A stretch of 64,000 nt of DNA from Chthonomonas calidirosea (GTDB lineage: Bacteria > Armatimonadota > Fimbriimonadia > Fimbriimonadales > Fimbriimonadaceae): NCBI GenBank assembly GCA_945859975.1, contig CAMAPH010000001.1, forward strand, positions 1 through 64,000. Direction: 5' to 3'. This document shows, in pieces, positions 4,356 to 59,924 of the stretch. The first letter of the stretch is position 1, and each line of letters begins with the position of its first letter. The position numbers and the translations under genes were made by a program. The notes below the pieces were generated by a model, which made no database searches, was not told the origin of the DNA, and saw nothing but the letters and a program-made list of their open reading frames with translations.

Positions 4356-4931
4356 ATGGCGGGCCGCACGACGATGAATCCGAGAACCATTCTCTGGTCG
4401 TCCGTCATCGTCCTCTCCGTCGCCGGGACCATCTTCGCCGGATTCTTGCTCAGCCGAAGCCAGGCCCAGCAGTCCGAGGTCGGAAAGCTCCGCCGAATCT
4501 TCGTCGCTTGGCAGCTCTATCGGGAGGATCACGACGGCGTCATGTCGCCGAACCTCAACGTGCTCCGCTACCGACTCGCCGACGACGCCGACCTGATCGC
4601 CAACGACGACCCGGACCGAAAAGGGCAATCGCCCTTCCCGATGGACCCGGCCCTCGGAGCCGCATCGGGCAGCTCCGAAGTCCGGATCAGCTACCCGTAC
4701 GTCGGAGCCTTCGCCATGGCCGGAAAGCTGTCCGATCGAATTGAGCAAATCTTCGAAAAGCCGAAACTCGGCCTTATCACCAATCCTTGGATCGGAGCCG
4801 TCGACCCAAAGGCCAAAACCTTCGACGGCCCGTTCCTCAGGCTAAACGCCTTCGGCTCGGTGCGAACGGTCCCTGCCAAAGGCAAGCAAAGACCGTTCGC
4901 CGACCCGAAGCGGCACTTCTTCGAACCTTAA
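4356..4931 (+). CDS. Pilin-like (DUF1559-related) membrane-anchored protein without canonical prepilin motif
   Basis: N-terminal TM, then KLRRIFVAWQLYREDHDG, similar to [19 protein letters not shown] of the 51326 pilin; the start may be the second ATG (MNPRT). Confidence 0.55.
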   Translation: MAGRTTMNPRTILWSSVIVLSVAGTIFAGFLLSRSQAQQSEVGKLRRIFVAWQLYREDHDGVMSPNLNVLRYRLADDADLIANDDPDRKGQSPFPMDPALGAASGSSEVRISYPYVGAFAMAGKLSDRIEQIFEKPKLGLITNPWIGAVDPKAKTFDGPFLRLNAFGSVRTVPAKGKQRPFADPKRHFFEP

Positions 4932-5938
4932 CCGCGCCGCTTCTTTCGAACCGTCCGCTTTGTTGGCTTCTTCGCCACCGGCGCCGCAACCGCGGGCTGC
5001 GAAGGTGAAACGGAATGCACCACCAGGCTGCCGCCAACGTTCGTGCTCAAGAAGAACGCACCGTCGCCGGAGAAGCAAATCGGCGACCCGACCGAGTTCT
5101 GATCGTTCAAAACCGCCACCTTCTGGAAGGTCGTCGAATTCCAAACGATCACGCTGCGATCTGTCGAGCTCGTGGCAATAAATCGCCCACTCGGCGACCA
5201 AGTCGCATTCGTGACCCAGTCCTTGTGCCCCATCAACCGGGCCAGTCGAACGCGAGACTTAGCATCCCAAACCATGCTAACTCCGTCCCGACCGGTGGTC
5301 ACAAACCGCGTACCGTTCTTGTTGTACGAAACGTCGAAGGTCCCTTCATTCGCGGGCTGACTCAAAATGCCAACCACCGCCCCGGTCTTCGCATCATAAA
5401 CCCGACCGACGTCGCCCAGAATCCCGGTCGCAATCAGGTTCGCCGAAGCCGGATTGAACTCGCCGCCATAAAGGTTGGAGCCCTTCCCAAGGATCTCCCG
5501 CTCTTCCTTCGGCGTATTCAGCCCCAGGTCCTGAATGTCAATCGCGTCGTCTTTGCCAACGCTCGCAAGCAGCGTCCGACCGACGTTAAAGCTCACCTTC
5601 TGAATCCCGCGCGTATGGCTTCGGTACTCCTGCACCTTCGCGCCCGTCCGTGCATCTTCAATGAAGACTCGCCCCGTCTCGTCGCCGGTCGCAATCCAAA
5701 CGCCGTCCCGACTCCAAGCCGCCGCATAAGCCGGCCCCGGATGCTTCGCCAACTTCCGCACCGTCTGCCGAGTCTTGGCATCGATAATCTGCACCGAGCC
5801 ATCCTCCAAGCACAGCACCACCTGCGTCCCCTGCGGCGCCGGAGCCATCGCCACCGGCCGCACCCCTTCCGAAACCTTCACCACCGAAATAGAAACACTC
5901 GGCGCCTGGCCCACTAGCATCATTGCTGAAAAAATCAT
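4928..5938 (-). CDS. Exported WD40-repeat beta-propeller protein
   Basis: Multiple GH...W-S-P-x-G...WD/WN repeats; short signal peptide; GGAGG RBS; basic C-terminal tail. Confidence 0.9.
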   Translation of the reverse strand: MIFSAMMLVGQAPSVSISVVKVSEGVRPVAMAPAPQGTQVVLCLEDGSVQIIDAKTRQTVRKLAKHPGPAYAAAWSRDGVWIATGDETGRVFIEDARTGAKVQEYRSHTRGIQKVSFNVGRTLLASVGKDDAIDIQDLGLNTPKEEREILGKGSNLYGGEFNPASANLIATGILGDVGRVYDAKTGAVVGILSQPANEGTFDVSYNKNGTRFVTTGRDGVSMVWDAKSRVRLARLMGHKDWVTNATWSPSGRFIATSSTDRSVIVWNSTTFQKVAVLNDQNSVGSPICFSGDGAFFLSTNVGGSLVVHSVSPSQPAVAAPVAKKPTKRTVRKKRRG

Positions 5939-48333: not shown

Positions 48334-50103
48334 ATGAAGATCAATCCGCCGCAGAATCGACTCGTCACTCCGCTTCCTAAGCTCGGAATTCGGCCGACCA
48401 TTGATGGTCGTTACGGCGGGGTTCGGGAGTCGTTGGAAGAGATCACGATGGCGATGGCGCGTTCGGTGGCCAGCCTAATAAGCGAGACCCTGAAACACAG
48501 CACGGGCGAGCCGGTGGAGTGCGTGATTGCCGACACTTGCATTGGCGGATTTTCTGAGGCGGCGGCTTGCGCGGATAAGTTCCGTCGCGAGGGCGTCGGG
48601 CTGACGCTCACCGTCACGCCTTGCTGGTGCTATGGGTCGGAAACGATGGACGACGACCCGACGATGCCGAAAGCGATTTGGGGCTTTAACGGGACGGACC
48701 GGCCTGGCGCGGTCTATCTTGCGGCAACCCTGAGCGGGCATGCGCAGTTCGGCGTCCCGAGTTTTGGCATTTACGGCCAAGACGTACAAGACCTCGGCGA
48801 TGAGAACGTCCCGACCGACGTGCGCGAACGGCTGTTCCAGTTCGTCCGCGCGGGAGTGGCCGCCTCTACCATGCGGAACACCGCTTATCTCGCCATGGGC
48901 GGCACCAGCATGGGCATCGCTGGAAGCGTGGTAGACGGCGATTTCTTCCGCCGCTACCTGGGCATGCGGGTGGAATCGGTCGACATGAGCGAGTTCACCG
49001 GGCGAATCCAGAACGGCATCTTCGACCACGAAGAGTACGAAAGAGCCCTCACCTGGTGCAAAGAGAACCTGCACGAGGGCGAAGACTTCAACTCGCCCGA
49101 GAAGACCCGCACCCGCGAGCACCTGGATTCCGAGTGGGAAACCAGCATCAAGATGACCCTTATCGCGCGGGACCTAATGATCGGCAACCCGCGCCTGGCC
49201 GAGTTGGGCTACCCCGAACAAGCGCGCGGCCACAACGCCATCGCCGGCGGATTTCAGGGCCAACGGCAATGGACGGACTACAACCCGAATGGCGACTTCC
49301 TGGAAGCGATGCTGTGCAGCAGCTTCGATTGGAACGGCATTCGCCAACCGTTCCTCGTTGCGACCGAGAACGACGCGCTGAACGGTGCCTCGATGCTCTT
49401 TGGCCACCTCCTCACCGGCACCGCGCAGATGTTCAGCGACGTCCGCACCTACTGGTCCCCCGACGCGGTGGAGCGAGTCACCGGATGGCGGCCCGAAAGC
49501 GGCTTCCTGCACCTAATCAACTCCGGCCCGAGCGCCCTGGACTGGACCGGCGAGGGTGGGCTTCAGCCTTGGTGGGAAATGAACGCCGATGACGCGAAGC
49601 GCTGCATCGATTCCACCCGCTTCTGCCCGAGCATCACCGAGTACTTCCCTGGCGGCGGCTGGTCGACCGACTTCACCACTCGCGGCGGATATCCGGTGAC
49701 GATGTTCCGCATCAATCTGGTCCACGGGCTCGGCCCGGTGCTCCAGATTGCGGAAGGCGAAACGATCGAGCTTCCAGAAGAGGTTCACAACGCCCTTGAC
49801 GCTCGCACGAACCCAAGCTGGCCGACGACCTGGTTCCGCCCGCGCGTCACCGGACAAGGGGCGTTTGCCGACGAGTACCAGGTGATGGCGCATTGGGGAG
49901 CGAACCACGGCGCGATCTCGGTCGGCCACATTGGCGCCGACCTCATCACGTTGGCGGCCATGCTCCGAATCCCGGTGGACATGCACAATGTCGAGTCCGC
50001 GCAGGTGTTCCGTCCGGCGGCGTGGCACCGGTTTGGTTCGGGAATGGAGAGCGTCGGCGCAGATTTCCGCGCCTGCGCCAACTACGGCCCTCTCTACGGA
50101 TAA
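48334..50103 (+). CDS. fucI: L-fucose isomerase
   Basis: [14 protein letters not shown] N-terminus, [30 protein letters not shown]. Confidence 0.96.
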
Positions 50104-50385: not shown

Positions 50386-50398
50386 GTAAACCTTGCGG

Positions 50399-51088
50399 GT
50401 GAAGCTTAAGTTCGTACTGCCGTGTCTTTTCCTGGTTCAGATGGCCACGGCACAAACCGTCTGCATTGACGCCGGACACCCGAGCGAGGTCGGCATGGGA
50501 ACCAAGGGCAAGGTTCATACCGAAGTCAGCCTCGCTTGGAAGATTGCCAAGGGCCTGCAGAAAGCACTTGAGGCGGAAGGCGTAACGGTCGTTCTGACGA
50601 AATCAGAGGAACTCGAAAAAGTCCTGAATCGACGGCGAGCCGAGATCGCCAACGACGCGAAGGCGGACCTTTTAATTCGACTCCACTGCGACGCCGCATC
50701 TGGCACCGGCTTCGCGGTGTACTACCCCGACCGCACCGGAACCACCAAAGACGGCATCACTGGCCCTAGCAAGGACGTGCTGGCGAAAACCGCGATCGCC
50801 GCGAAGAAGTTTCACGCCGTCTATGCAGCCGCTTTGAAAGGCGCGCAGAAGGATAACGGTCTGAAATCTGATCTTAAGACTGCCATCGGCGCGAAGCAAG
50901 GCGCGCTCACCGGTTCGATTTTCTCCAAAGTCCCGGTTTTGCTCGTCGAGATGTGCGTGCTCACGAACCCCGCAGACGAAGCATTCATTGGTTCCGGTGA
51001 CGGCCAGCAAAAGATCATTTCGGCAATGACGAAAGCAACCCTTGCCGTGGTCAAACCTGCCACCGCGAGCCAAAAAGCCCGGTTATAA
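50399..51088 (+). CDS. N-acetylmuramoyl-L-alanine amidase (Amidase_3)
   Basis: CIDAGH, E, RAEIAN...LHCD, VLLVE; signal peptide. Confidence 0.92.
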   Translation: MKLKFVLPCLFLVQMATAQTVCIDAGHPSEVGMGTKGKVHTEVSLAWKIAKGLQKALEAEGVTVVLTKSEELEKVLNRRRAEIANDAKADLLIRLHCDAASGTGFAVYYPDRTGTTKDGITGPSKDVLAKTAIAAKKFHAVYAAALKGAQKDNGLKSDLKTAIGAKQGALTGSIFSKVPVLLVEMCVLTNPADEAFIGSGDGQQKIISAMTKATLAVVKPATASQKARL

Positions 51089-51098
51089 TAACAGTCAT

Positions 51099-51270
51099 TG
51101 CGAAGGGTGCCCTGTCGTGGGGCATCTGTAAATTGGGGAAAGTCCGGTGAAATTCCGGCACTGTGCCGCAACGGTAGATCGACCTTGGTCGAAAGTCCGA
51201 ATGCCCGCTTCGCAGAAAAGAACAGCGAGTGCTGTCACCTACGAGCATGGGTCCCCGGAGCGGCGCAACG
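51099..51270 (+). ncRNA. Cobalamin (B12) riboswitch, short form
   Basis: GGGAAAGTCCGGTGAAATTCCGGCACTGTGCCGCAACGGTA core and B12-box-like AAGTCCGAA; P1 TGCGAAG/CTTCGCA; L5 GCCGC (51165-51169) complementary to GCGGC (51260-51264); TATAAT at 51084-51089. Confidence 0.9.
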
Positions 51271-51325
51271 TCGCCTCCCTGTCCATTTCTCCGCAACTGA
51301 CGGCCTTACCCGTGTGAGGTTCAGC

Positions 51326-52090
51326 ATGAAAAATCGAGCGTTTACTCTCATCGAGCTTCTCGTCGTCATCGCCATCATCGCGATTCTCGCCGCCATCCTC
51401 TTCCCAGTCTTCGCCCAAGCCAAGGCCGCCGCCAAAAAGACCCAGTCGCTGAGCAACCTCAAGCAGATCGGGCTCGCCTGGCTGCTTTACGGCAACGACT
51501 ACGACGACACCATGATGCGCGTCGCTACCGGCTCCGCCGCTTCAGGCAAGGTGTTTTACTGGTGGGGCAGCTTCGACGGAGCTACCCTTAGAGAAAACGA
51601 GGGGCTGCTCTTTCCGTACACCAAGAACAAAGGAATTCAAACCGACCCGGCATTCCCGGAAACTCTGCGGACCACCGTAGGGCTGACCGGATATGGCTAC
51701 AACTACAACTATCTCAGCCCGACAGATTACGTTCCGCCGACCTACAACGAGGTGGCAAAGCCCGTGAACTATGGCGCGGTGGGATCGGTTGCCGACACCG
51801 TTGCTTTTGGTACATCTGCGCGGATGAGCTTTGGCCTGCCGCATCAGCTTGAGGGCAATACATACCTGGAGCCCCCGTCCAGCGAGTACCCAACCTTCCA
51901 CGGGCGGCATTTGAGCACCGGGTTAGTGGCATGGGCCGATGGGCACGCAACAGCATTCCGCCCGAAGCTACGACGCGGAACGTTCGGTTATGGTGGAGCC
52001 TACAACGAGTCCGAGTTCAACCCGGTCCAGCTCGGTGAGCTAGACCGAGACGGAGACTTTTCGACCGACGAACTGTTCGATCTCGAATAG
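51326..52090 (+). CDS. Prepilin-type N-terminal cleavage/methylation protein (DUF1559 / H-X9-DG)
   Basis: [58 protein letters not shown]. Confidence 0.93.
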
Positions 52091-52092
52091 GA

Positions 52093-52515
52093 TCAGCGTC
52101 GCTCGACCGTGTCGATTCCGAGCTCCCAGAACCACACGGTCGAGTTTGCCGGCACTACCTTTTGGTAGGTTTCGTTCGTGCCCTTGCGGGTGACGCGAAT
52201 GCTGCAAACTCGATCGTTCGGAGAAGTGTTCACCACGTACGCCCGGTAAAGCGTGAATGAGGGCTGGACATCGAATCGAAGCTCTTGGATGCTCGGGTTG
52301 GAGCACCACTCAGGTTGGGAAGACAAAGTGCATTCCTGACCGGCACCTGGAACGCGATTGCTACGCGTGACGACGATTTGCGTGTTTGCCGAATCCGTGG
52401 TCGCGAAGTTGAGGGTCGTAGGGACGGCCTGAACAAACGAAGTGCCACCGCACCCAGATAGGGCCGAGACGGCAATAACTACTGACGTGAGCCAAAGAGG
52501 GTGAATGTTCTTCAT
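52093..52515 (-). CDS. Hypothetical lipoprotein
   Basis: Lipobox LSGC; beta-rich, three further Cys. Confidence 0.75.
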   Translation of the reverse strand: MKNIHPLWLTSVVIAVSALSGCGGTSFVQAVPTTLNFATTDSANTQIVVTRSNRVPGAGQECTLSSQPEWCSNPSIQELRFDVQPSFTLYRAYVVNTSPNDRVCSIRVTRKGTNETYQKVVPANSTVWFWELGIDTVERR

Positions 52516-52619
52516 GTTTTCTCGATTGCGAATGGTACCAATGCGGATTATCTCCCATAGGACGTTGGCACCAGCTTTGCGCTACGTTCAAACCGTCCCC
52601 GAGGGTTCACAATCATTGA

Positions 52620-53951
52620 ATGTCCTCCGTTTTCCCTGGCCCGATCTCGCAACGCATGCTCACCGAGCTTTCCGAGTTTGTGATCGCCGAGCCATATCCC
52701 TTCGTCCTTGACATTTCGAAGGGGGACGGGATGTACTTGGAAACGGTGGACGGGCAGCGCCTGTTCGACTGGGCCGGATATTACGGCAGCAAGCTCATTG
52801 GCCACAACCACCCCGGCTTGTACGAGCCGGAGTACACCAAACGTCTTGTGGTGGCCGCCAACAATAAAGTCGCCAACCCAGACTTTCTAACGAAAGAATG
52901 CCTGGACTACTACCAGCTCCTCTACCGAATCGCGCCGGAGATCATGAAGAGCGACACGCTCGAAGTCTACGCGGTGAACTCCGGCGCAGAAGCGGTCGAA
53001 AACATGATGAAATATCTGGTTGCCAAGTTCAACCAGAAGCGAGCAAAGAAAGGTGGGCCGAGCGGACATCGCCGATTCCTCTACTTCGATAAAGCCTTTC
53101 ATGGCCGAACGGTTTTTGCTCTTGGTGTGACTCAAACCATTGACCCGGTTGCAACGAAAGACTTCCTTGGACTTACAACCACTGGCAACATTAAGTTGCC
53201 GTTCCCTTCGTACAGCAGCGATTTATCAGAAGAAGAGAACCTTCGCGCCGCCGAACATTCGCTTCAGCAAGTTGAAAGCGCACTATCGCTCATGAGCGAT
53301 GAAATCGTTGGAATCATCGTTGAGCCAATTCAAGGTGCGGGAGGTCACCGAGTAGCAATCCCTCAGTTCTTCCAGGGCCTCTCCGAACTCGCCCACAAGT
53401 ACGACGTGTACCTAGGCTTCGACGAGGTCCAAACTGGGCTTGGGGCAACCGGAAAGATGTGGGCGATAGATCACTTTGATCTTCCATACCCTCCCATGGC
53501 CATCGCGACCGGAAAGAAGTTCGGCAACGGCGTGGTTTATATGGTTGAACCACTCGAAGATGTCGGCGTTCTGGATTCAACCTGGGGAGGCTCCTTGGCT
53601 GATATGGTGCGTGTTGTTCGTGAATTCGAGATCCTTGAACAGGAAGACTTGATTTCTAAAGCGGCAATCAAAGGCGAGCTACTTGCCAAGGGATTAAGAG
53701 AACTTGTAAGCAAATACTTCCCAATGGTTCGGAACGTTCGTGGACTTGGCTTATATCAAGGGATATCTTTAGATTCAACGTCCCGAAAAGCGCGACTAAT
53801 CGACGTTGCACTGACCGAATATCAGACAATTTTACTAGGTGCAGGCTCAAGATCGATCCGTACCCGGCCAAATATGTCGGTCACGGAAGATGAAATTGCG
53901 CACTTCATCACAATTCTTGGCCAATCCATCGCAACGGTTCAGGACAACTAA
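52620..53951 (+). CDS. Class III PLP aminotransferase (L-lysine 6-transaminase-like)
   Basis: NSGAEAVEN, FHGRT, EPIQGAGG, FDEVQTG, STWGG. Confidence 0.88.
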   Translation: MSSVFPGPISQRMLTELSEFVIAEPYPFVLDISKGDGMYLETVDGQRLFDWAGYYGSKLIGHNHPGLYEPEYTKRLVVAANNKVANPDFLTKECLDYYQLLYRIAPEIMKSDTLEVYAVNSGAEAVENMMKYLVAKFNQKRAKKGGPSGHRRFLYFDKAFHGRTVFALGVTQTIDPVATKDFLGLTTTGNIKLPFPSYSSDLSEEENLRAAEHSLQQVESALSLMSDEIVGIIVEPIQGAGGHRVAIPQFFQGLSELAHKYDVYLGFDEVQTGLGATGKMWAIDHFDLPYPPMAIATGKKFGNGVVYMVEPLEDVGVLDSTWGGSLADMVRVVREFEILEQEDLISKAAIKGELLAKGLRELVSKYFPMVRNVRGLGLYQGISLDSTSRKARLIDVALTEYQTILLGAGSRSIRTRPNMSVTEDEIAHFITILGQSIATVQDN

Positions 53952-54020
53952 CCTGCAAAAAATACCGTGTTTTGATACAGTCACAGAACCTTGGGCATTT
54001 TCTGACGATTATGCCAATGT

Positions 54021-55418
54021 ATGGTTAGAGAGCTTCTCGCCGCAGCAGTTTGCTGTACACCACTTTTTGCTTTTGCGCAACCGTCTGTTGTATTCCAAGT
54101 TGATGCGGAGGTTAGGGCCAACGCAGTAACGAGGACGTTACCGGTTACGACCAGTGATGCGGTTTCTTGGAGCCAGAGGGCGCAAGCATCCGTTTCGTAT
54201 AATTCAGGTAACGCTTACCTGGACCACGCAGTTCAGATCCTGAGTGCGGACGGCACGCTCTCGATCAAGCGATCCGCCCAAAACGTTTACAATCACGAGC
54301 TTCTTGCTCCGAACGTATCCAATACGACCAGCGATGTAGTCCGGGTTAAGGCCTTTGTGCGCGGCGCACCAGGAACGCCTTACTCGTTCTTCATCTCGAC
54401 AAACTCGTTTGCAACTCCCTCTACTTCCGCTGGTACCAGCACCGCTTCTACCACGGAATCGGCAACCGGAGCTTCCTCGTTCTCCTTCAATGCTGGTCGG
54501 AATTCGAGCTACGCACAAGGCGTGTCGACCTCCGAGACAATCACTCACATGGGTGAAACGTACTCGGCCGTTGATCTTTCTTGCAGCAGTGCCAGCAACA
54601 CCGCCTACAACTTCTCCAGCATCAATACGGTTTCCCCGTTCTATGCCAACAGTCGAGTGAGCGGAACCACTACGATCAAGCTGAAGAACTTGGCGTTCGA
54701 CGACATCATCCTCAACCTGGCGAGAGTTCAAGACACGAACAACCCTGATCGACCCAGCGTCGTCGTTGTGCCCGACATCAACTTGGATGAAATCCAGTAC
54801 ACGATCAACGGCATCACGTACACCCAACCTGGACCGTTCGCCGCGAACGTCGGACAAAAGGTCTTGATGCCAAACCTCAACGGCATCGCTCCTGGCGCTT
54901 ACACCGTTCAGTTCACCGGAACTCAAGGCGCTTTGACAACTGAAATCGCCTCCACGACGCTCGATACATCGGCCTTCAGCCAAACTCTGAATGCCACGCT
55001 TCAGCCTGTTTCTGGCTCTGCCGGGCCAGGGCAGCAAGGCGGAGGCGTTAACTCCTTCGCGGTGACGATCAGCGGATTCCGCCGAGCCTGGGGCCTACCG
55101 GGCACCATGGTCGATCGAAAGATCACCTCCTACTCTGCAGCCCTAAGTTCCAACTTCTTCGTTGGGCCAACTTTCTCGAGTAACTTGCAAGGAATCATCT
55201 CCGGTGCGACGTTTGGGGCACCAGCCACCTTTAATGCCGCAGGAACCGGCGGGAACAGTGGCGGACTGCTGACGATGACCTATGGCAGCCTGTACACCGT
55301 ATACGCAAAGTCTGGCAACGCAATTGAGTTCCGGTTGAGCGGAACCCGTAATGGCACCCCCTGGCTCTGGAATCCAGGCTCTACCTCGTACGGATCTGTA
55401 TCCGCTAACATCAACTAA
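54021..55418 (+). CDS. Exported Ser/Thr-rich beta-strand protein of unknown function
   Basis: Signal peptide ending AFA; few charged residues; no recognised motif. Confidence 0.75.
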   Translation: MVRELLAAAVCCTPLFAFAQPSVVFQVDAEVRANAVTRTLPVTTSDAVSWSQRAQASVSYNSGNAYLDHAVQILSADGTLSIKRSAQNVYNHELLAPNVSNTTSDVVRVKAFVRGAPGTPYSFFISTNSFATPSTSAGTSTASTTESATGASSFSFNAGRNSSYAQGVSTSETITHMGETYSAVDLSCSSASNTAYNFSSINTVSPFYANSRVSGTTTIKLKNLAFDDIILNLARVQDTNNPDRPSVVVVPDINLDEIQYTINGITYTQPGPFAANVGQKVLMPNLNGIAPGAYTVQFTGTQGALTTEIASTTLDTSAFSQTLNATLQPVSGSAGPGQQGGGVNSFAVTISGFRRAWGLPGTMVDRKITSYSAALSSNFFVGPTFSSNLQGIISGATFGAPATFNAAGTGGNSGGLLTMTYGSLYTVYAKSGNAIEFRLSGTRNGTPWLWNPGSTSYGSVSANIN

Positions 55419-55426
55419 TCCACTCA

Positions 55427-55465
55427 CCTCCTTCGTTGCCTATGCAACGAAGGAGGATTTTCTTT
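55427..55465 (+). terminator. Intrinsic terminator
   Basis: 13-bp perfect stem CCTCCTTCGTTGC/GCAACGAAGGAGG then ATTTTCTTT. Confidence 0.8.
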
Positions 55466-55497
55466 GCGGCAGCCTCCAACTGGGTACCGTACTTGCC

Positions 55498-56604
55498 ATG
55501 AGCCCATTGAAGATTGGAATCGTCGGGTGCGGGAACATCAGCGGCATTTACTTCGAGAACCTTGGAAAGTACACCGCGACTTCGATTGTTGCAGTGGCAG
55601 ATTTGGACCTCGAGCGAGCCAAGCAAGCGGCAGAAAAGAACGGCATTCCGCTTGCCCTGAGCCCCGACGAGCTGATTGCCCATCCAGACGTGGACTTGGT
55701 GCTGAACCTCACGATTCCAAAGGCGCACGCCTCCGTTGCCCAAGCCGCCGTCGAAAACGGCAAGCATGTCTACAACGAAAAGCCGCTGACGGTAGACCTT
55801 GCTGAAGCGCAGCAGCTTCTTCAAACTGCCAAAGAAAAGGGCGTGCGAGTTGGCGGAGCTCCCGACACGTTCCTTGGCGGCGGACATCAAACCGCACGAG
55901 CCGCCATTGATCGCGGCGACATCGGCGAGCCGATTGGCTCCCACGCCTTCATGCTTTGCCATGGTCACGAGTCTTGGCACCCGTCGCCGGAGTTCTATTA
56001 CGAGCGCGGCGGTGGACCAATGCTAGACATGGGCCCGTACTATCTCACCGCTCTCGCCAACATGATCGGCTCGGTCAAGCGGGTCACCGGTTCAACGCGA
56101 ATCACGTTCCCCACCCGCACAATCACCAGCCAGCCAAAGCACGGCAAGGTCATCGAAGTCGAAACCCCGACCCATATCGCCGGAATCATGGACTTCCAAA
56201 ACGGCGCTGTCGGCGAAATCACCACCAGCTTTGATGTTTGGTACAGCAAGGTTCCTAGCATCATCGTTTACGGCACGGAGGGCTCACTCTTGGTTCCAGA
56301 CCCGAACGGTTTTGGTGGAGAGGTTCAGATTCGCCAGCGCGGCCAAGCCGAGTGGGAAGTTGTGCCTAACCTACATGGGTTCAACGGCAACTCTCGCGGA
56401 GTTGGCGTTCTTGATATGGCTATCGCGATCCGTGATGGTCGCCCTCACCGAGCCAGCGGCGAACTTGCCGGGCACGTGCTTGAGGTGATGCATGCCTTTG
56501 AACAAAGCAGCACGACATCTCAGCACATTTCTTTGAGTTCTGAGCTGGTTCGACCGGCGGCGCTTGGCGAAACCGAGCTTCACGAATTCCTTCCCGTTGG
56601 ATGA
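55498..56604 (+). CDS. Gfo/Idh/MocA family oxidoreductase
   Basis: IGIVGCGNIS, NEKP, GGGPMLDMGPYY; start re-called at MSPLKIG. Confidence 0.93.
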   Translation: MSPLKIGIVGCGNISGIYFENLGKYTATSIVAVADLDLERAKQAAEKNGIPLALSPDELIAHPDVDLVLNLTIPKAHASVAQAAVENGKHVYNEKPLTVDLAEAQQLLQTAKEKGVRVGGAPDTFLGGGHQTARAAIDRGDIGEPIGSHAFMLCHGHESWHPSPEFYYERGGGPMLDMGPYYLTALANMIGSVKRVTGSTRITFPTRTITSQPKHGKVIEVETPTHIAGIMDFQNGAVGEITTSFDVWYSKVPSIIVYGTEGSLLVPDPNGFGGEVQIRQRGQAEWEVVPNLHGFNGNSRGVGVLDMAIAIRDGRPHRASGELAGHVLEVMHAFEQSSTTSQHISLSSELVRPAALGETELHEFLPVG

Positions 56605-56622
56605 ATGTAAACTGCCACTACT

Positions 56623-57747
56623 TTGGCTAGCGCATACACCCCGGGACTAACCGTAAGCGGTGACATCTTTGTACGTCGCCTTCGACGCCTTCCGATCAAA
56701 GGCGACGTACTCGTGAAAGTTGGTGACCACGTGGAACCCGATTCCGTGGTCGCCGTGGCCATGCTTCCGGGCGTGCTGCAAACCATGAAGATGGCCGACA
56801 AACTCGGCATCGAAGCCCGCGACGTCCCGTCCGTCTTCCCGCTGAAGCCCGGTGCGAAGGTCGCGAAAGGCGATGTCATCGCCGAAACCAAAGGCATGAT
56901 GGGCTTCTTCAAGACTAAGGTGGAAGCCGACTTTACCGGCACGATCGAATCCGTCTCCGAAGTCACCGGAAACGTGCTCATTCGAGAGCCATCGATCCCG
57001 GTCGAAATCAATGCATACATCAAGGGGCGGATCGTTGATGTGCTCCCAGATGAAGGCGCGATTGTCGAGACCCGAGCCGCCATGGTCCAGGGCATCTTCG
57101 GTGTTGGCGGCGAGCGCGTTGGAACCATCCGCGTTGCGGCGAACTCTCCTGAAAGCGTTCTAGAGGCCGATCACATCCACGAAAGCGACCGAGGCAAGAT
57201 TCTCATCGGCGGCGCGGGAATGGCGCTGAGCGCAATCAAGAAAGCCGCCAGCGTTGGTGTTATCGCCCTCGTTGCCGGCGGATTGCGAGACGAGGATCTG
57301 ATCAATTTCCTTGGCTACGACATCGGCGTAGCGATTACCGGCTCGGAAAACATTCCGCTCACCCTCGTCGTCACCGAAGGATTTGGCTACCTCAACATGG
57401 CGCAGCGCACCTTCGACCTCTTCCGATCTTTGGAAGGAAAGGAAGCCAGTGTCAATGGCGCCACTCAGATTCGTGCCGGCGTTATTCGACCGGAGGTCAT
57501 TGTCCCACTCCCGCTAGATCAGGCGGAGTCGGTCCGCGCCGCGGATGTCTTCGAACTGACGGTCGGAACCCCGATTCGAATGATCCGCGAACCGTACTTT
57601 GGCGAACTGGGAACGGTTACCGGACTTCCGGCGACTCTTCAGGTCCTCGAGTCAGGCACCGAAGTCCGTGTTCTCACCGCGAAGCTGCCTTCTGGCGAAG
57701 AAGTCACCGTTCCGCGAGCGAACGTCGAAATCATCGCCAGCAACTAA
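56623..57747 (+). CDS. Conserved hypothetical protein with barrel-sandwich-hybrid motifs and a KOW-like C-terminus
   Basis: GDVLVKVGDHV, KPGAKVAKGDVIA, VGTPIRMIREPYFGELGTV; TTG start. Confidence 0.8.
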   Translation: MASAYTPGLTVSGDIFVRRLRRLPIKGDVLVKVGDHVEPDSVVAVAMLPGVLQTMKMADKLGIEARDVPSVFPLKPGAKVAKGDVIAETKGMMGFFKTKVEADFTGTIESVSEVTGNVLIREPSIPVEINAYIKGRIVDVLPDEGAIVETRAAMVQGIFGVGGERVGTIRVAANSPESVLEADHIHESDRGKILIGGAGMALSAIKKAASVGVIALVAGGLRDEDLINFLGYDIGVAITGSENIPLTLVVTEGFGYLNMAQRTFDLFRSLEGKEASVNGATQIRAGVIRPEVIVPLPLDQAESVRAADVFELTVGTPIRMIREPYFGELGTVTGLPATLQVLESGTEVRVLTAKLPSGEEVTVPRANVEIIASN

Positions 57748-57749
57748 GG

Positions 57750-59924
57750 CTAGTTTCGGAGCGCCGTCTTGTGCTCTATCATGTGGCGCAATCTGACTTG
57801 GCTCAGGTTGCGCTGACATAGATCGAGGAACTCGGACCGCTCCATCCGTAATGCGTTTTCGTACGAGTTCGTTTTTGCAAAAATCGCCTTCAGCCGATCC
57901 CCGATGACCTCGTCATATTCGGTCAGGTCACCCTTCGCCATTTTCTCTTTCTGCAGTCGGTCAATCATTCCGACCGTCGGGCCAACGACGTCCTTCCATT
58001 CGGGTCGCTGCGAAACCGTAACCTCGAGCGCCACTTGTTTCGCCTGCCACAGCAACCGATCTGGGTGGTAGCACGTCACGTCATCTGGGCCAAGGTAACC
58101 GAATGACCGGGCCTGATCCGCGTTGATGCTCGTCTTCCCTTCCGTTAAGGTTAAGCAAGCATCGGCGAGAGTTGCCGAGGTGGCTTGATGTCTCAGCCGC
58201 ATGAGAGTAACGCCACGTCCGCCTGGCAACAGCCCGACTTTCGATTCGGGTAGCCCGATCTGCGCATCCGCCGCCGCGACAATTCGACTGCAGGATCGAG
58301 CGAGTTCAAAGCCCGCGCCAAGACCATAGCCATGAATCGCCGCTACCGTTCGCCGCGCTTCAAGAAGCTCACCGAGGGTCTGCAAATCCTGCAGCGCGAC
58401 ATCGATGCTCGCCCAGTCTTCTTTCTGAATCGCGTCGTGGAAAAAGTTGAGATCAAAACCGACGCTGTACGCCTTTCCGGGCGTGGTGAGCACAAGCGGA
58501 GCGTCCGATTGGCTCGTGAGCCATCGCGACAGGCCCTCCACCAGGGCGGGGGTGATCAGCCCAAGCTTGGTTTTCAGGACAACCGCTCGAACGCCATCTC
58601 CCAAGTCTTGAACTCGGAAGGTCTCAAGCTCTTCGAGAACCGGCAAATCGGCGAGAGTCACGTATTCTGGTTGCGCAGCCGGTTCGACATATTCCCCGGT
58701 GAAGCTCCGAATCTTGCCTTCGGAATAGAACCTGACCGGCTCGACGCCAACCTGCTCTGCCCCGATGGCGTCGATCATCTCGAACGGCCCCATCTCCCAG
58801 CCAAAGCCCCACTTCATCACTTGGTCGAAGTCTTGCACTCCGTACGAGACCTCTTCTTTCACCACGTTGGCGTATCGCAGAATCGGTAGCAGGTACATCC
58901 GCAGGTACTCGCCGACTTCATCTTTCGCGGCGAGTCCAGATCGAAGTCGTTCGGCAAGAGGCAGTTTGCCGAACTCCGAGATGGATGGCAGTTCGGGCTC
59001 CATCCGCTCGCGATAGGTGTTCGTCACGAGATCGAATGAAAGCAGTTGCTTTCCGTCGCGTCGATAGTAACCCTGTCCGGACTTTTCGCCCAGGAATCCA
59101 CGAGCCATCAGTGAGTTGATCGATTCCGGTCGGTGCAAAACGCCTACGTGCGCATCGTTAACGCATCGCTGAATCAAGTTGCTCGCGATGTCCTCCATCA
59201 CGTCCAGCCCGACGAGGTCATTCAAACGGAACGTCCCGCTCTTGGGCCGGCCAATGAATGGTCCGGTAATGGCATCGACCTGCTCAACGGTCAGCCGAAG
59301 CTTTTCTGCGACATGGGTCGCAAGATACATGCACCACATTCCGTAGCGATTGGCAATAAAGCCAGGGGTGTCTTTGGCTGGCACAACCCTTCGCCCGACG
59401 GAATCTTCTAGGAACGCGGTCAAAGTCTGAACAACCGCAGGATCGGTCTCGGCGGTCGGAATCAGTTCAAGGAGCTTGAGATATCGTGGCGGATTAAAAA
59501 AATGTGTTCCAACAAATCGACGCCGAAAAGAGTCGGATCGGCCTTCGGCGAGGTGGGCGATCTCAAGGCCGCTTGTGTTCGTGGAAATGAATGCATCGTC
59601 CCGCAGATAGGGCTCGATCGATGCGTACAACTCCCGCTTGATCTCAAGCTTTTCGGCCACCGCCTCGACCACCCAATCCGCTTCAAGGATCCAGTTCGAG
59701 TTAAGGTCAACGCCGCCCAATCGAACCTGATTCGCTCGTTCGGGCAAGAAAAAGTGGGGAGGCTTCGCCATCTTGGCACGATCAAAGCCGACAACGGCGC
59801 GCTCCATGGTTTGGTCGAGCAAAGTGACCTTCAATCCCAGGTTGACCAAGTGGGCTGCAATCCCGCTTCCCATGGTTCCCGCACCAATGACGCACACGTT
59901 TCGGATGGAGTTGGGTTGGCTCAT
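57750..59924 (-). CDS. 3-hydroxyacyl-CoA dehydrogenase / enoyl-CoA hydratase fusion (FadN-like)
   Basis: GAGTMGSGIA, STNTSG, HFFNPPRY, DTPGFIANR; C-terminal crotonase domain. Confidence 0.93.
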   Translation of the reverse strand: MSQPNSIRNVCVIGAGTMGSGIAAHLVNLGLKVTLLDQTMERAVVGFDRAKMAKPPHFFLPERANQVRLGGVDLNSNWILEADWVVEAVAEKLEIKRELYASIEPYLRDDAFISTNTSGLEIAHLAEGRSDSFRRRFVGTHFFNPPRYLKLLELIPTAETDPAVVQTLTAFLEDSVGRRVVPAKDTPGFIANRYGMWCMYLATHVAEKLRLTVEQVDAITGPFIGRPKSGTFRLNDLVGLDVMEDIASNLIQRCVNDAHVGVLHRPESINSLMARGFLGEKSGQGYYRRDGKQLLSFDLVTNTYRERMEPELPSISEFGKLPLAERLRSGLAAKDEVGEYLRMYLLPILRYANVVKEEVSYGVQDFDQVMKWGFGWEMGPFEMIDAIGAEQVGVEPVRFYSEGKIRSFTGEYVEPAAQPEYVTLADLPVLEELETFRVQDLGDGVRAVVLKTKLGLITPALVEGLSRWLTSQSDAPLVLTTPGKAYSVGFDLNFFHDAIQKEDWASIDVALQDLQTLGELLEARRTVAAIHGYGLGAGFELARSCSRIVAAADAQIGLPESKVGLLPGGRGVTLMRLRHQATSATLADACLTLTEGKTSINADQARSFGYLGPDDVTCYHPDRLLWQAKQVALEVTVSQRPEWKDVVGPTVGMIDRLQKEKMAKGDLTEYDEVIGDRLKAIFAKTNSYENALRMERSEFLDLCQRNLSQVRLRHMIEHKTALRN

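Follow-up and report, generated by a model that had tools for sequence, protein, structure and literature searches.

A cobalamin riboswitch dedicated to one group of pilin-like genes in Armatimonadota points to a role in corrinoid acquisition

We analysed the first 64,000 nt of contig CAMAPH010000001.1 of Chthonomonas calidirosea, a soil-type member of the Armatimonadota. This 64-kb stretch, referred to as the window in the rest of the text, belongs to a 3.12-Mb draft genome (G000) that is 95.8% complete. The window holds a cobalamin riboswitch aptamer directly upstream of a stand-alone gene coding for a prepilin-type protein, a pairing that recurs in the family Fimbriimonadaceae and elsewhere in the phylum Armatimonadota. 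We consider it rather probable that this gene codes for a B12-repressed, pilin-like component dedicated to corrinoid acquisition. Comparative genomics lends good support to a role in B12 acquisition, whereas we infer that the gene is repressed by B12, that its product assembles into a fibre and that this product binds or hands over a ligand. The locus comprises the following features.

51084-51089, + strand: TATAAT, candidate -10 element (direct reading)
about 51099-51214, + strand: cobalamin riboswitch aptamer (matches to RF01689 and RF00174; P1 and P2 by eye)
51237-51252, + strand: conserved hairpin with a 5-bp covarying stem and the loop CGAGCA at 51242-51247 (RNAalifold)
51257-51278, + strand: variable hairpin holding GCGGC at 51260-51264 (minimum-free-energy fold)
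51302-51321, + strand: hairpin sequestering the Shine-Dalgarno (SD) sequence, GGCCUUAC-CCGU-GUGAGGUU (minimum-free-energy fold)
51326 (ATG) to 52090 (stop), + strand: prepilin-type H-X9-DG gene coding for 254 aa (Pfam N_methyl)

A first-pass annotation made from the letters alone had described a well-formed short cobalamin aptamer and had proposed to check it against the Rfam cobalamin models. A sensitive scan of positions 50900-51500 (601 nt) returned a match to the AdoCbl-II model RF01689 at 51125-51214 on the + strand (36.2 bits, E 6.4e-7). The alignment spans all 81 model positions, and when scored against the whole of G000 the match is the only one in the genome (E 8.1e-7). RF00174 also has its sole match in G000 here, at 51086-51226 (27.8 bits compared to a gathering score of 31.5, E 4.4e-5). 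By direct reading, P1 is formed by UGCGAAG (51099-51105) pairing over 7 bp with CUUCGCA (51208-51214), and P2 is the hairpin at 51106-51125. With P1 and P2 added to the model match, which corresponds to the aptamer core (51125-51214), the aptamer extends over about 51099-51214. The core motifs GGGAA, GGUGAAAUUCC and the B12-box-like AGUCCGAAUGCC all lie inside P1, and the core columns are invariant over 34 aligned leaders. With P1 and the core intact and a per-genome E value of this order, the aptamer withstood the Rfam check, though 0.3 bits under the gathering score of RF01689.

To survey the pairing, we used a family sample of 100 other Fimbriimonadaceae genomes, scanned with RF01689 under filters stricter than those of the locus rescan mentioned below, and a phylum sample of 150 Armatimonadota genomes, the phylum within which the pairing was tested. 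The family sample contained 73 matches, which came from 67 genomes, most of these having a single match. A prepilin homologue follows on the same strand after 65 of the 73 aptamers, in 64 genomes (64 found by tblastn, and one, L030, by its motif on a truncated contig), and the median distance between aptamer end and prepilin motif is 130.5 nt; among the relatives' matches exceeding the gathering score, 23 of 30 are pilin-linked. Close orthologues of the window protein (E <= 1e-40, 46-70% identity) occur in 51 of the 100 genomes and are single-copy except in G030. The culturable relative Fimbriimonas ginsengisoli also encodes an orthologue (P0046, 66% identity). Seven orthologue loci had no RF01689 match, and all seven gained an RF00174 aptamer just upstream when rescanned (45.4-29.3 bits, five over the gathering score); no aptamer was gained on rescan by the second, weaker copy of G030. 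Altogether, the pair is carried by 71 of the 100 genomes. Outside the family, 24 of the 36 aptamer matches in the phylum precede a prepilin homologue, and these belong to ten other families. The survey of riboswitch coupling across Armatimonadota suggested by the first-pass annotation thus found the pairing kept.

The association is also specific to one kind of pilin-like gene. G000 contains 62 open reading frames (ORFs) with a prepilin motif, and once those linked to B12 and to thiamine pyrophosphate (TPP, see below) are set aside, none of the remaining 60 has an Rfam match (E <= 0.01) within 350 nt upstream. We built a tree with FastTree from 136 prepilin-type proteins, comprising 86 riboswitch-linked proteins and 50 other paralogues of G000; four riboswitch-linked loci were left out because they had no complete 150-aa ORF, as were 11 short ORFs of G000. 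All 86 riboswitch-linked proteins fall on one side of a single branch (Shimodaira-Hasegawa-like support of 97), and one label change suffices to separate them from the others. This tree is to be read as a clustering, not as a rooted history, because the paralogues come from one genome and the method is a quick one. The nearest full-length paralogue inside G000 shares 42% identity with the window protein. As judged from these comparisons, the switch is dedicated to one orthologue group of pilin-like genes across the family and the phylum.

Three results weigh against this picture. First, the aptamer falls 0.3 bits short of the RF01689 gathering score of 36.5, which explains why an Rfam scan of the whole window at gathering scores gave no match, and neither RF01689 nor RF00174 places it in clan CL00101 by gathering score. 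Second, the minimum-free-energy fold of the leader is unexceptional (z -1.18). Third, 8 of the 73 aptamer matches in the family and 12 of the 36 in the phylum have no pilin gene behind them. The eight family loci are L066, where only 2 nt of contig are left, L003 and L015 (MetE), L006 (small subunit of ribonucleotide reductase), L010 and L013 (a small protein), and L012 and L021 (secreted proteins). A score just below gathering and a blank window scan are what one would expect if the aptamer matched by chance or were a decayed relic in front of an ordinary pilin paralogue. However, the shortfall is no ground for doubt since orthologous aptamers of relatives reach 54.4 bits, and those directly before pilin orthologues 52.2 bits. 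Together with the per-genome E value, the pairing in 71 of 100 family genomes and the absence of any Rfam match at the 60 control paralogues, this makes a chance or relic match hardly credible.

The best reading of the leader is that the switch would act by translational repression through sequestration of the SD sequence. GAGG at 51316-51319, located 6 nt 5' of the ATG, is paired in the predicted fold with a probability of 0.99, and CCUC...GAGG hairpins of like kind are found in many relatives' leaders. A consensus scan detected no terminator-like site on the + strand from the aptamer to the ATG. The median SD pairing was 0.80 in riboswitch leaders (SD found in 68 of 88) compared to 0.69 in control prepilin genes (26 of 61); this excess is modest, and its P value of 0.004 ignores relatedness, which counts against the proposed mode of control.

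The first-pass annotation had also predicted a kissing pair between GCCGC in L5 (51165-51169) and GCGGC (51260-51264). Both sequences are present, but the second is not conserved: it was found in 12 of 65 Fimbriimonadaceae leaders compared to 13.3 expected from shuffles, and the sequence of the hairpin that holds it differs between relatives. Instead, L5 may kiss the loop CGAGCA, which would then be L13. This motif occurs in 62 of the 65 leaders (5.2 expected) and is closed by 4 bp in 54 of them, and RNAalifold revealed covariation in its stem over 34 leaders (8 double changes at pair 149/157 and 4 at pair 148/158). L5 (UGCCG) could pair with the CG(A)GCA loop if one A bulges. Beyond Fimbriimonadaceae, the motif was found in 3 of 24 leaders, about chance (2.4). 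Covariation of CGAGCA with L5 across families amounted to 6 of 15 compared to about 6.4 expected, and both elements are invariant inside Fimbriimonadaceae.

The gene downstream codes for a protein with the N-terminus of a type IV prepilin (N_methyl PF07963, E 1.6e-8 in Pfam; TIGR02532, E 7.6e-8 in NCBIfam). The short, basic leader peptide MKNRA ends in a small residue (-1) and is followed by a mature N-terminus at F6 (+1), by E10 at position +5 and by a hydrophobic helix, as in class III signal peptides. The label of DUF1559/H-X9-DG protein given by the first-pass annotation was borne out for the prepilin N-terminus and for the motif, H195-x9-D205-G206, read directly at 51908-51943, but not for DUF1559: PF07596 scored 16.4 bits compared to a cut-off of 23.3 and matched residues 31-60 only. 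Many close orthologues, such as P0003, P0005, P0006 and P0007, have precomputed PF07596 matches, and several orthologues were named "prepilin-type processing..." by the Joint Genome Institute (JGI). The strict H-X9-DG motif is present in 45 of the 86 riboswitch-linked proteins compared to 7 of the 50 paralogues. The model of the H-X9-DG prepilin-associated domain, which we take to be NCBIfam TIGR04294, was absent among the 14 NCBIfam matches of the window protein at E <= 0.01. An AlphaFold2 model computed from 56 sequences (predicted local distance difference test, pLDDT, of 90.9) consists of a helix at residues 8-58 followed by an enlarged beta-rich head. Foldseek aligned only the N-terminal helix of type IV pilins in the PDB (E >= 0.25), and in a search of PDB sequences with a profile of the orthologues, the matches were confined to the alpha-1 helix of pilins. 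In a second fold search, the top matches were all pilins or pseudopilins with weak scores (Z 5.4 to 3), including ComP (PDB 5hz7 and 2nba), EpsG and PulG.

Two candidates were rejected in assigning this target. A longer ORF starting at TTG 51098 (330 aa) traverses the aptamer; the SD sequence lies at 51316-51319 and the homologues start at the prepilin leader. A B12-independent isoenzyme was also considered as the target of the switch. The protein has no enzyme-like domain, and MetE and the small subunit of ribonucleotide reductase take that role at relatives' aptamers.

A parallel case was found at another vitamin sensor. G000 has one TPP riboswitch (contig C2, 19231-19337, - strand), whose score of 68.1 bits exceeds the gathering score. 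Another stand-alone prepilin gene (C2, 18389-19156) lies 75 nt downstream of it, and together riboswitch and gene span 4890-5838 of locus L205. The gene codes for 255 aa (N_methyl E 2.6e-6), and the next gene is a convergent uppS. The B12-linked and TPP-linked proteins are alike over the first ~60 residues (58% identity in a gapped alignment reaching residue ~108), and their heads are unrelated. A TPP match is present in 94 of 101 Fimbriimonadaceae genomes. We surveyed the best-scoring 30 TPP loci of the family: all 30 precede a prepilin motif within 202 nt, in 29 of them the gene codes for a full-length orthologue of the TPP-linked protein, with identities that have a median of 59%, and in only two does the protein align at length to the B12-linked protein. 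Because the sensors of two vitamins are each coupled to their own pilin-like clade, and these clades differ in the head, this case is the strongest support for the view, put forward in the first-pass annotation, that the family provides interchangeable substrate-specific receptors. That part of the proposal gained an independent instance in all 30 loci examined; the part in which such proteins act instead of TonB-dependent receptors did not stand, as described below.

The genes that follow the pilin-like gene in relatives also point to the handling of B12. Of the 86 loci where the pilin-like gene is complete, 72 have a next ORF in the same orientation, and 34 of these 72 downstream ORFs were scanned for family assignment. 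We found 15 PEP-CTERM proteins forming one family, 14 members of a second secreted family with no Pfam match, four DUF4465 proteins (E 1e-39 to 1e-51), three Peripla_BP_2 (BtuF-type) proteins, and one each of BtuR/CobA, CobU and DUF6580. At L060 the PEP-CTERM gene is placed between the aptamer and the pilin-like gene, and in G089, from the same genus as G000, a partner gene starts 2 nt after the pilin-like gene. A model of the PEP-CTERM partner (21 sequences, pLDDT 80) retrieved the B12-binding beta-domain of transcobalamin, haptocorrin and intrinsic factor as top Foldseek matches (E from 2.6e-4, probability 1.0). Down to rank 19, all matches are to one of these three proteins except 3u7z, an uncharacterised putative metal-binding protein, and the template modelling (TM) scores against the isolated-domain chains 5no0, 5np4 and 3u7z were 0.62-0.72. 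By sequence, the partner proteins had no match in the PDB. Judging by the model, the PEP-CTERM partners are probably transcobalamin-beta-like, predicted B12 binders. DUF4465 is described (PMC13398666, PMC8941943) as the domain through which BtuH and BtuJ of Bacteroides bind B12 with high affinity. A predicted complex between the pilin head and the transcobalamin-beta-like partner, both from L009, scored 0.01, which is evidence neither way.

With a separate probable binder encoded in many relatives, B12 binding need not be a task of the pilin-like protein. It could be a structural or adaptor pseudopilin that has no ligand, is produced only when B12 is short and equips the general pilus or type II apparatus for exporting, displaying or docking the proteins that do bind B12. 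A probable binder adjoins it in many relatives (15 transcobalamin-beta-like and four DUF4465 proteins among the 86 loci), and its clade-specific residues are few, both of which speak for an adaptor. However, the switch governs no gene but the pilin-like one in G000 and many relatives, and no homologue of a partner protein was found in G000; moreover, it is the head and not the stalk that separates the B12-linked from the TPP-linked clade, as expected of a ligand-specific part. On this evidence we consider a purely structural role unlikely. The same neighbours bear on the idea of a pilus or adhesin produced upon B12 starvation for contact with B12 producers or for altered surface behaviour, with no part in uptake. 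Type IV pili are often adhesive, and regulation by B12, itself inferred, would by itself suit such a pilus just as well. Nevertheless, BtuF-type, BtuR, CobU, DUF4465 and transcobalamin-like neighbours point to the handling of a molecule, and the parallel TPP-linked clade would be hard to account for, making an adhesin quite improbable.

Some further genes next to these loci deserve mention. The signal-peptide family with no Pfam match that follows the pilin-like gene at 14 loci (L016, L019, L023-L025, L029, L034, L038, L043, L044, L057, L058, L064 and L075) is also found at L021 (1601-2434), directly 3' of a B12 aptamer, and is a candidate for a further B12-capture protein. The DUF6580 protein (L103, 2576-3097, + strand; E 1.8e-46), from another family of the phylum, overlaps the end of the pilin-like gene by 4 nt, and this uncharacterised family may take part in B12 import. 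In several families of the phylum, the gene directly 3' of a B12 aptamer codes for a secreted protein of ~330 aa with no Pfam match (L012, 1606-2607; L092, L093, L096 and L108), with a second conserved ORF after it at L012, L092, L096 and L108. Finally, a protein of 87-97 aa lies 3' of a high-scoring B12 aptamer at L010 (1160-1420, - strand) and L013 (1169-1459, - strand), both from one genus; each of these two genomes holds a second, pilin-linked aptamer.

The B12 economy of G000 is compatible with a need for import. The MetH half responsible for B12 binding and activation is encoded in G000, and MetE was not found in it, suggesting that the organism appears to need B12; CobS was not found either, and thus it appears unable to complete B12 synthesis. 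One Peripla_BP_2 (BtuF-type) gene (contig C4, 114536-115243) and one FecCD permease gene (C4, 28142-29098) are present, 86 kb apart, and neither has adjoining ABC (ATP-binding cassette) partners or a riboswitch. The genome also encodes the processing and assembly machinery of the type IV pilin superfamily, with three secretins, eight T2SSE ATPases over the cut-off and a prepilin peptidase (Peptidase_A24, C13, 38196-38519). In one region of contig C6, nine prepilin-motif ORFs stand in tandem (53273-57653) between a secretin (48518-48991) and a T2SSE ATPase (58669-59826), a cluster that probably represents core pilus or type II secretion genes. No TonB-receptor barrel was found in G000. B12 (1.3 kDa) is too large for porins, and to our knowledge every well-described outer-membrane B12 route of Gram-negative bacteria uses a TonB-dependent receptor. 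From its gene content, G000 therefore seems to have an inner-membrane B12 route and pilus machinery, with no known outer-membrane route found.

This inventory raises the question of whether the pilin-like protein could stay outside any fibre, its N-terminal helix anchoring it to the inner membrane, and act as a periplasmic corrinoid binder feeding an ABC importer, much like the sugar binders of the Sulfolobus bindosome. Every comparative result that speaks for a role in B12 acquisition suits such an anchored binder just as well, and the sole FecCD permease of G000 is encoded with no adjacent binding protein. On the other hand, G000 already has a BtuF-type Peripla_BP_2 protein, and in three relatives a BtuF-type gene comes directly after the pilin-like gene; because the two are adjacent there, they are not substitutes for each other. 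The model resembles pilins, if weakly, and not periplasmic binding proteins, and the passage of a 1.3-kDa ligand through the outer membrane would be left unexplained where no TonB receptor was found. Taken together, these observations make an anchored binder rather unlikely, and we favour assembly of the protein into a pilus-like structure.

The list below completes the locus with the features that flank it.

50393-51088, upstream of the aptamer: Amidase_3 gene (Pfam, E 1.1e-26)
52093-52515, - strand: putative convergent ORF of 140 aa with a lipoprotein-like signal (ORF list)
52155-52168, + strand: terminator-like stem-loop with a T-rich tail, 65 nt past the stop codon (consensus scan)

The convergent orientation of the next ORF and the terminator-like site at 52155-52168 imply that the riboswitch governs one gene, in agreement with the first-pass annotation, which had the switch controlling the pilin alone; the 140-aa product of this putative ORF has no Pfam or NCBIfam family. 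As for the TATAAT listed there, it is indeed present and, although only plausible as a promoter from its sequence, would place the start of transcription just 5' of P1. A scan of 50900-52700 for sigma-70-type consensus promoters gave 0 matches, because the -35 element is absent. The TAA stop codon of the Amidase_3 gene (51086-51088) lies within TATAAT. Elsewhere in the window (61670-62623, - strand) is a gene coding for a 317-aa protein with an ArsR-type helix-turn-helix domain followed by B12-binding_2 and B12-binding domains. This protein might be a transcription regulator that depends on cobalamin, perhaps responds to light and binds DNA through an unusual domain.

Several observations argue against a direct and general role of the pilin-like protein as B12 receptor. 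It resembles only pilins and pseudopilins, and weakly, the best fold match being Thermus PilA4 (Z 5.4, root-mean-square deviation of 3.5 over 119 residues). None of the known B12-binder folds (BtuF, BtuG, DUF4465/BtuH/BtuJ and transcobalamin beta) was among the matches of Foldseek, the second fold search or the search of PDB sequences; the protein may have a binding site all the same. Only three positions, G93, G122 and S185, distinguish the clade from the paralogues, and none hints at contact with cobalt or corrin. Many relatives' operons encode a separate probable binder, of which no homologue was found in G000 (tblastn, E <= 1e-3), and absences from G000 have to be read as "not found" since the draft is 95.8% complete. 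Lastly, 78 of 101 Fimbriimonadaceae genomes have no TonB-receptor barrel, yet the pair occurs in 16 of the 23 barrel-bearing genomes and in 56 of the 78 barrel-less ones, independently of the loss of TonB receptors. With these proportions, the pilin-like protein is not a simple stand-in for lost TonB receptors, and the claim of the first-pass annotation that such pilins operate "instead of TonB-dependent receptors" was too strong, the pair being equally common with and without a barrel.

The working model that we favour is a dedicated pilin-like component of corrinoid acquisition. When corrinoid is plentiful, the riboswitch would keep the ribosome-binding site in a hairpin and translation would be off. 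Under shortage the protein would be made, and prepilin peptidase would cleave it after MKNRA; the mature protein would join a conserved helix, its stalk, to a head particular to the clade. The secretin, ATPase and peptidase machinery would then build it into a short pseudopilus or pilus, where it could capture corrinoid or take it from accessory binders in those relatives having them, and bring it through the outer membrane to the BtuF/BtuC-type importer. More tentatively, and with considerable doubt, one may imagine that Armatimonadota import vitamins by a TonB-independent secretin-pseudopilus machine, in which pilin-like subunits would be the ligand receptors, each switched by its own riboswitch (B12, TPP), and the ~60 paralogues per genome would be the repertoire.

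Parts of this model have counterparts in known systems. In E. coli, the btuB riboswitch (RF00174) governs the TonB-dependent receptor BtuB, which works with BtuFCD. The likeness would lie in a cobalamin riboswitch repressing the gene of the envelope component with which B12 uptake begins, and in the presence of a BtuF/BtuC-type inner-membrane route, whereas the component here is a 254-aa pilin-like protein and not a 22-strand barrel, and G000 revealed no TonB-receptor barrel. No TonB receptor occurs among the identified genes downstream of the aptamers, several of the 12 non-pilin loci of the phylum being unassigned. Type IV pili and competence pseudopili take up DNA with the help of a ligand-binding minor pilin, ComP in Neisseria. 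In our working model, too, a pilin-fold protein would lend ligand specificity to a secretin and ATPase machine that carries a large ligand across the outer membrane; in our case a vitamin would take the place of DNA as ligand, the riboswitch for this vitamin precedes the gene, and the fibre and its retraction are hypothetical. Sugar-binding proteins of the Sulfolobus bindosome carry type IV prepilin-like signal peptides and feed an ABC importer. They share with our case solute binding on pilin-signal proteins and a dedicated assembly machinery, but they are archaeal, with no outer membrane, no riboswitch control and classical binding-protein heads. In Clostridioides difficile, a c-di-GMP (cyclic di-GMP) riboswitch reportedly precedes pilA1, a type IV pilin gene. 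There, as here, a riboswitch directly governs a pilin gene, but the C. difficile switch responds to a second messenger by turning on a pilus for motility and adhesion, and is not a vitamin sensor tied to acquisition genes of that vitamin.

Closer to B12, the Bacteroides proteins BtuG, BtuH and BtuJ (DUF4465) are surface B12-capture proteins encoded in riboswitch-regulated loci (PMC8941943, PMC10404256 and PMC13398666). They resemble the present case as riboswitch-governed accessory envelope binders of B12, and DUF4465 follows the pilin-like gene at four relatives' loci. In contrast, the Bacteroides proteins are lipoproteins centred on BtuB and TonB, while the constant member here is a prepilin-type protein and G000 has no DUF4465 or transcobalamin-like partner. 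Large families of DUF1559 proteins (PF07596, "SBP_bac_10") are described for Planctomycetota, with 68 paralogues of which two are essential and whose function is given as unknown in P. limnophila (PMC10632474, in part) and 74 DUF1559/H-X9-DG prepilin-like paralogues in R. baltica (PMC2754498, in part); the available text of these two papers assigns no ligand to the family. The prepilin N-terminus, the H-X9-DG C-terminal motif and the size of the paralogue family per genome are shared with the Armatimonadota proteins, but the window protein is below the PF07596 cut-off and the B12-linked clade has a defined regulatory input. Among the papers listed by our literature search, judged by titles and abstract openings, none links a vitamin riboswitch to a pilin-like gene.

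We thus have an apparently B12-dependent and auxotrophic organism in which the sole B12 riboswitch and the sole TPP riboswitch each stand before a pilin-like gene. Because the riboswitch names the ligand, the B12-linked and TPP-linked clades are the first members of the prepilin-like, H-X9-DG and DUF1559 proteins with a defined, testable substrate. The recurrence of the pairing across the phylum points to an undescribed, pilin-based route of vitamin uptake. If true, this would represent a new class of nutrient uptake machine, would explain the expansion of these paralogues in Armatimonadota and in bacteria of the PVC (Planctomycetes-Verrucomicrobia-Chlamydiae) group, and would provide a first function for the DUF1559/H-X9-DG families. 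It would also matter for predicting the cross-feeding of vitamins in soil and water communities.

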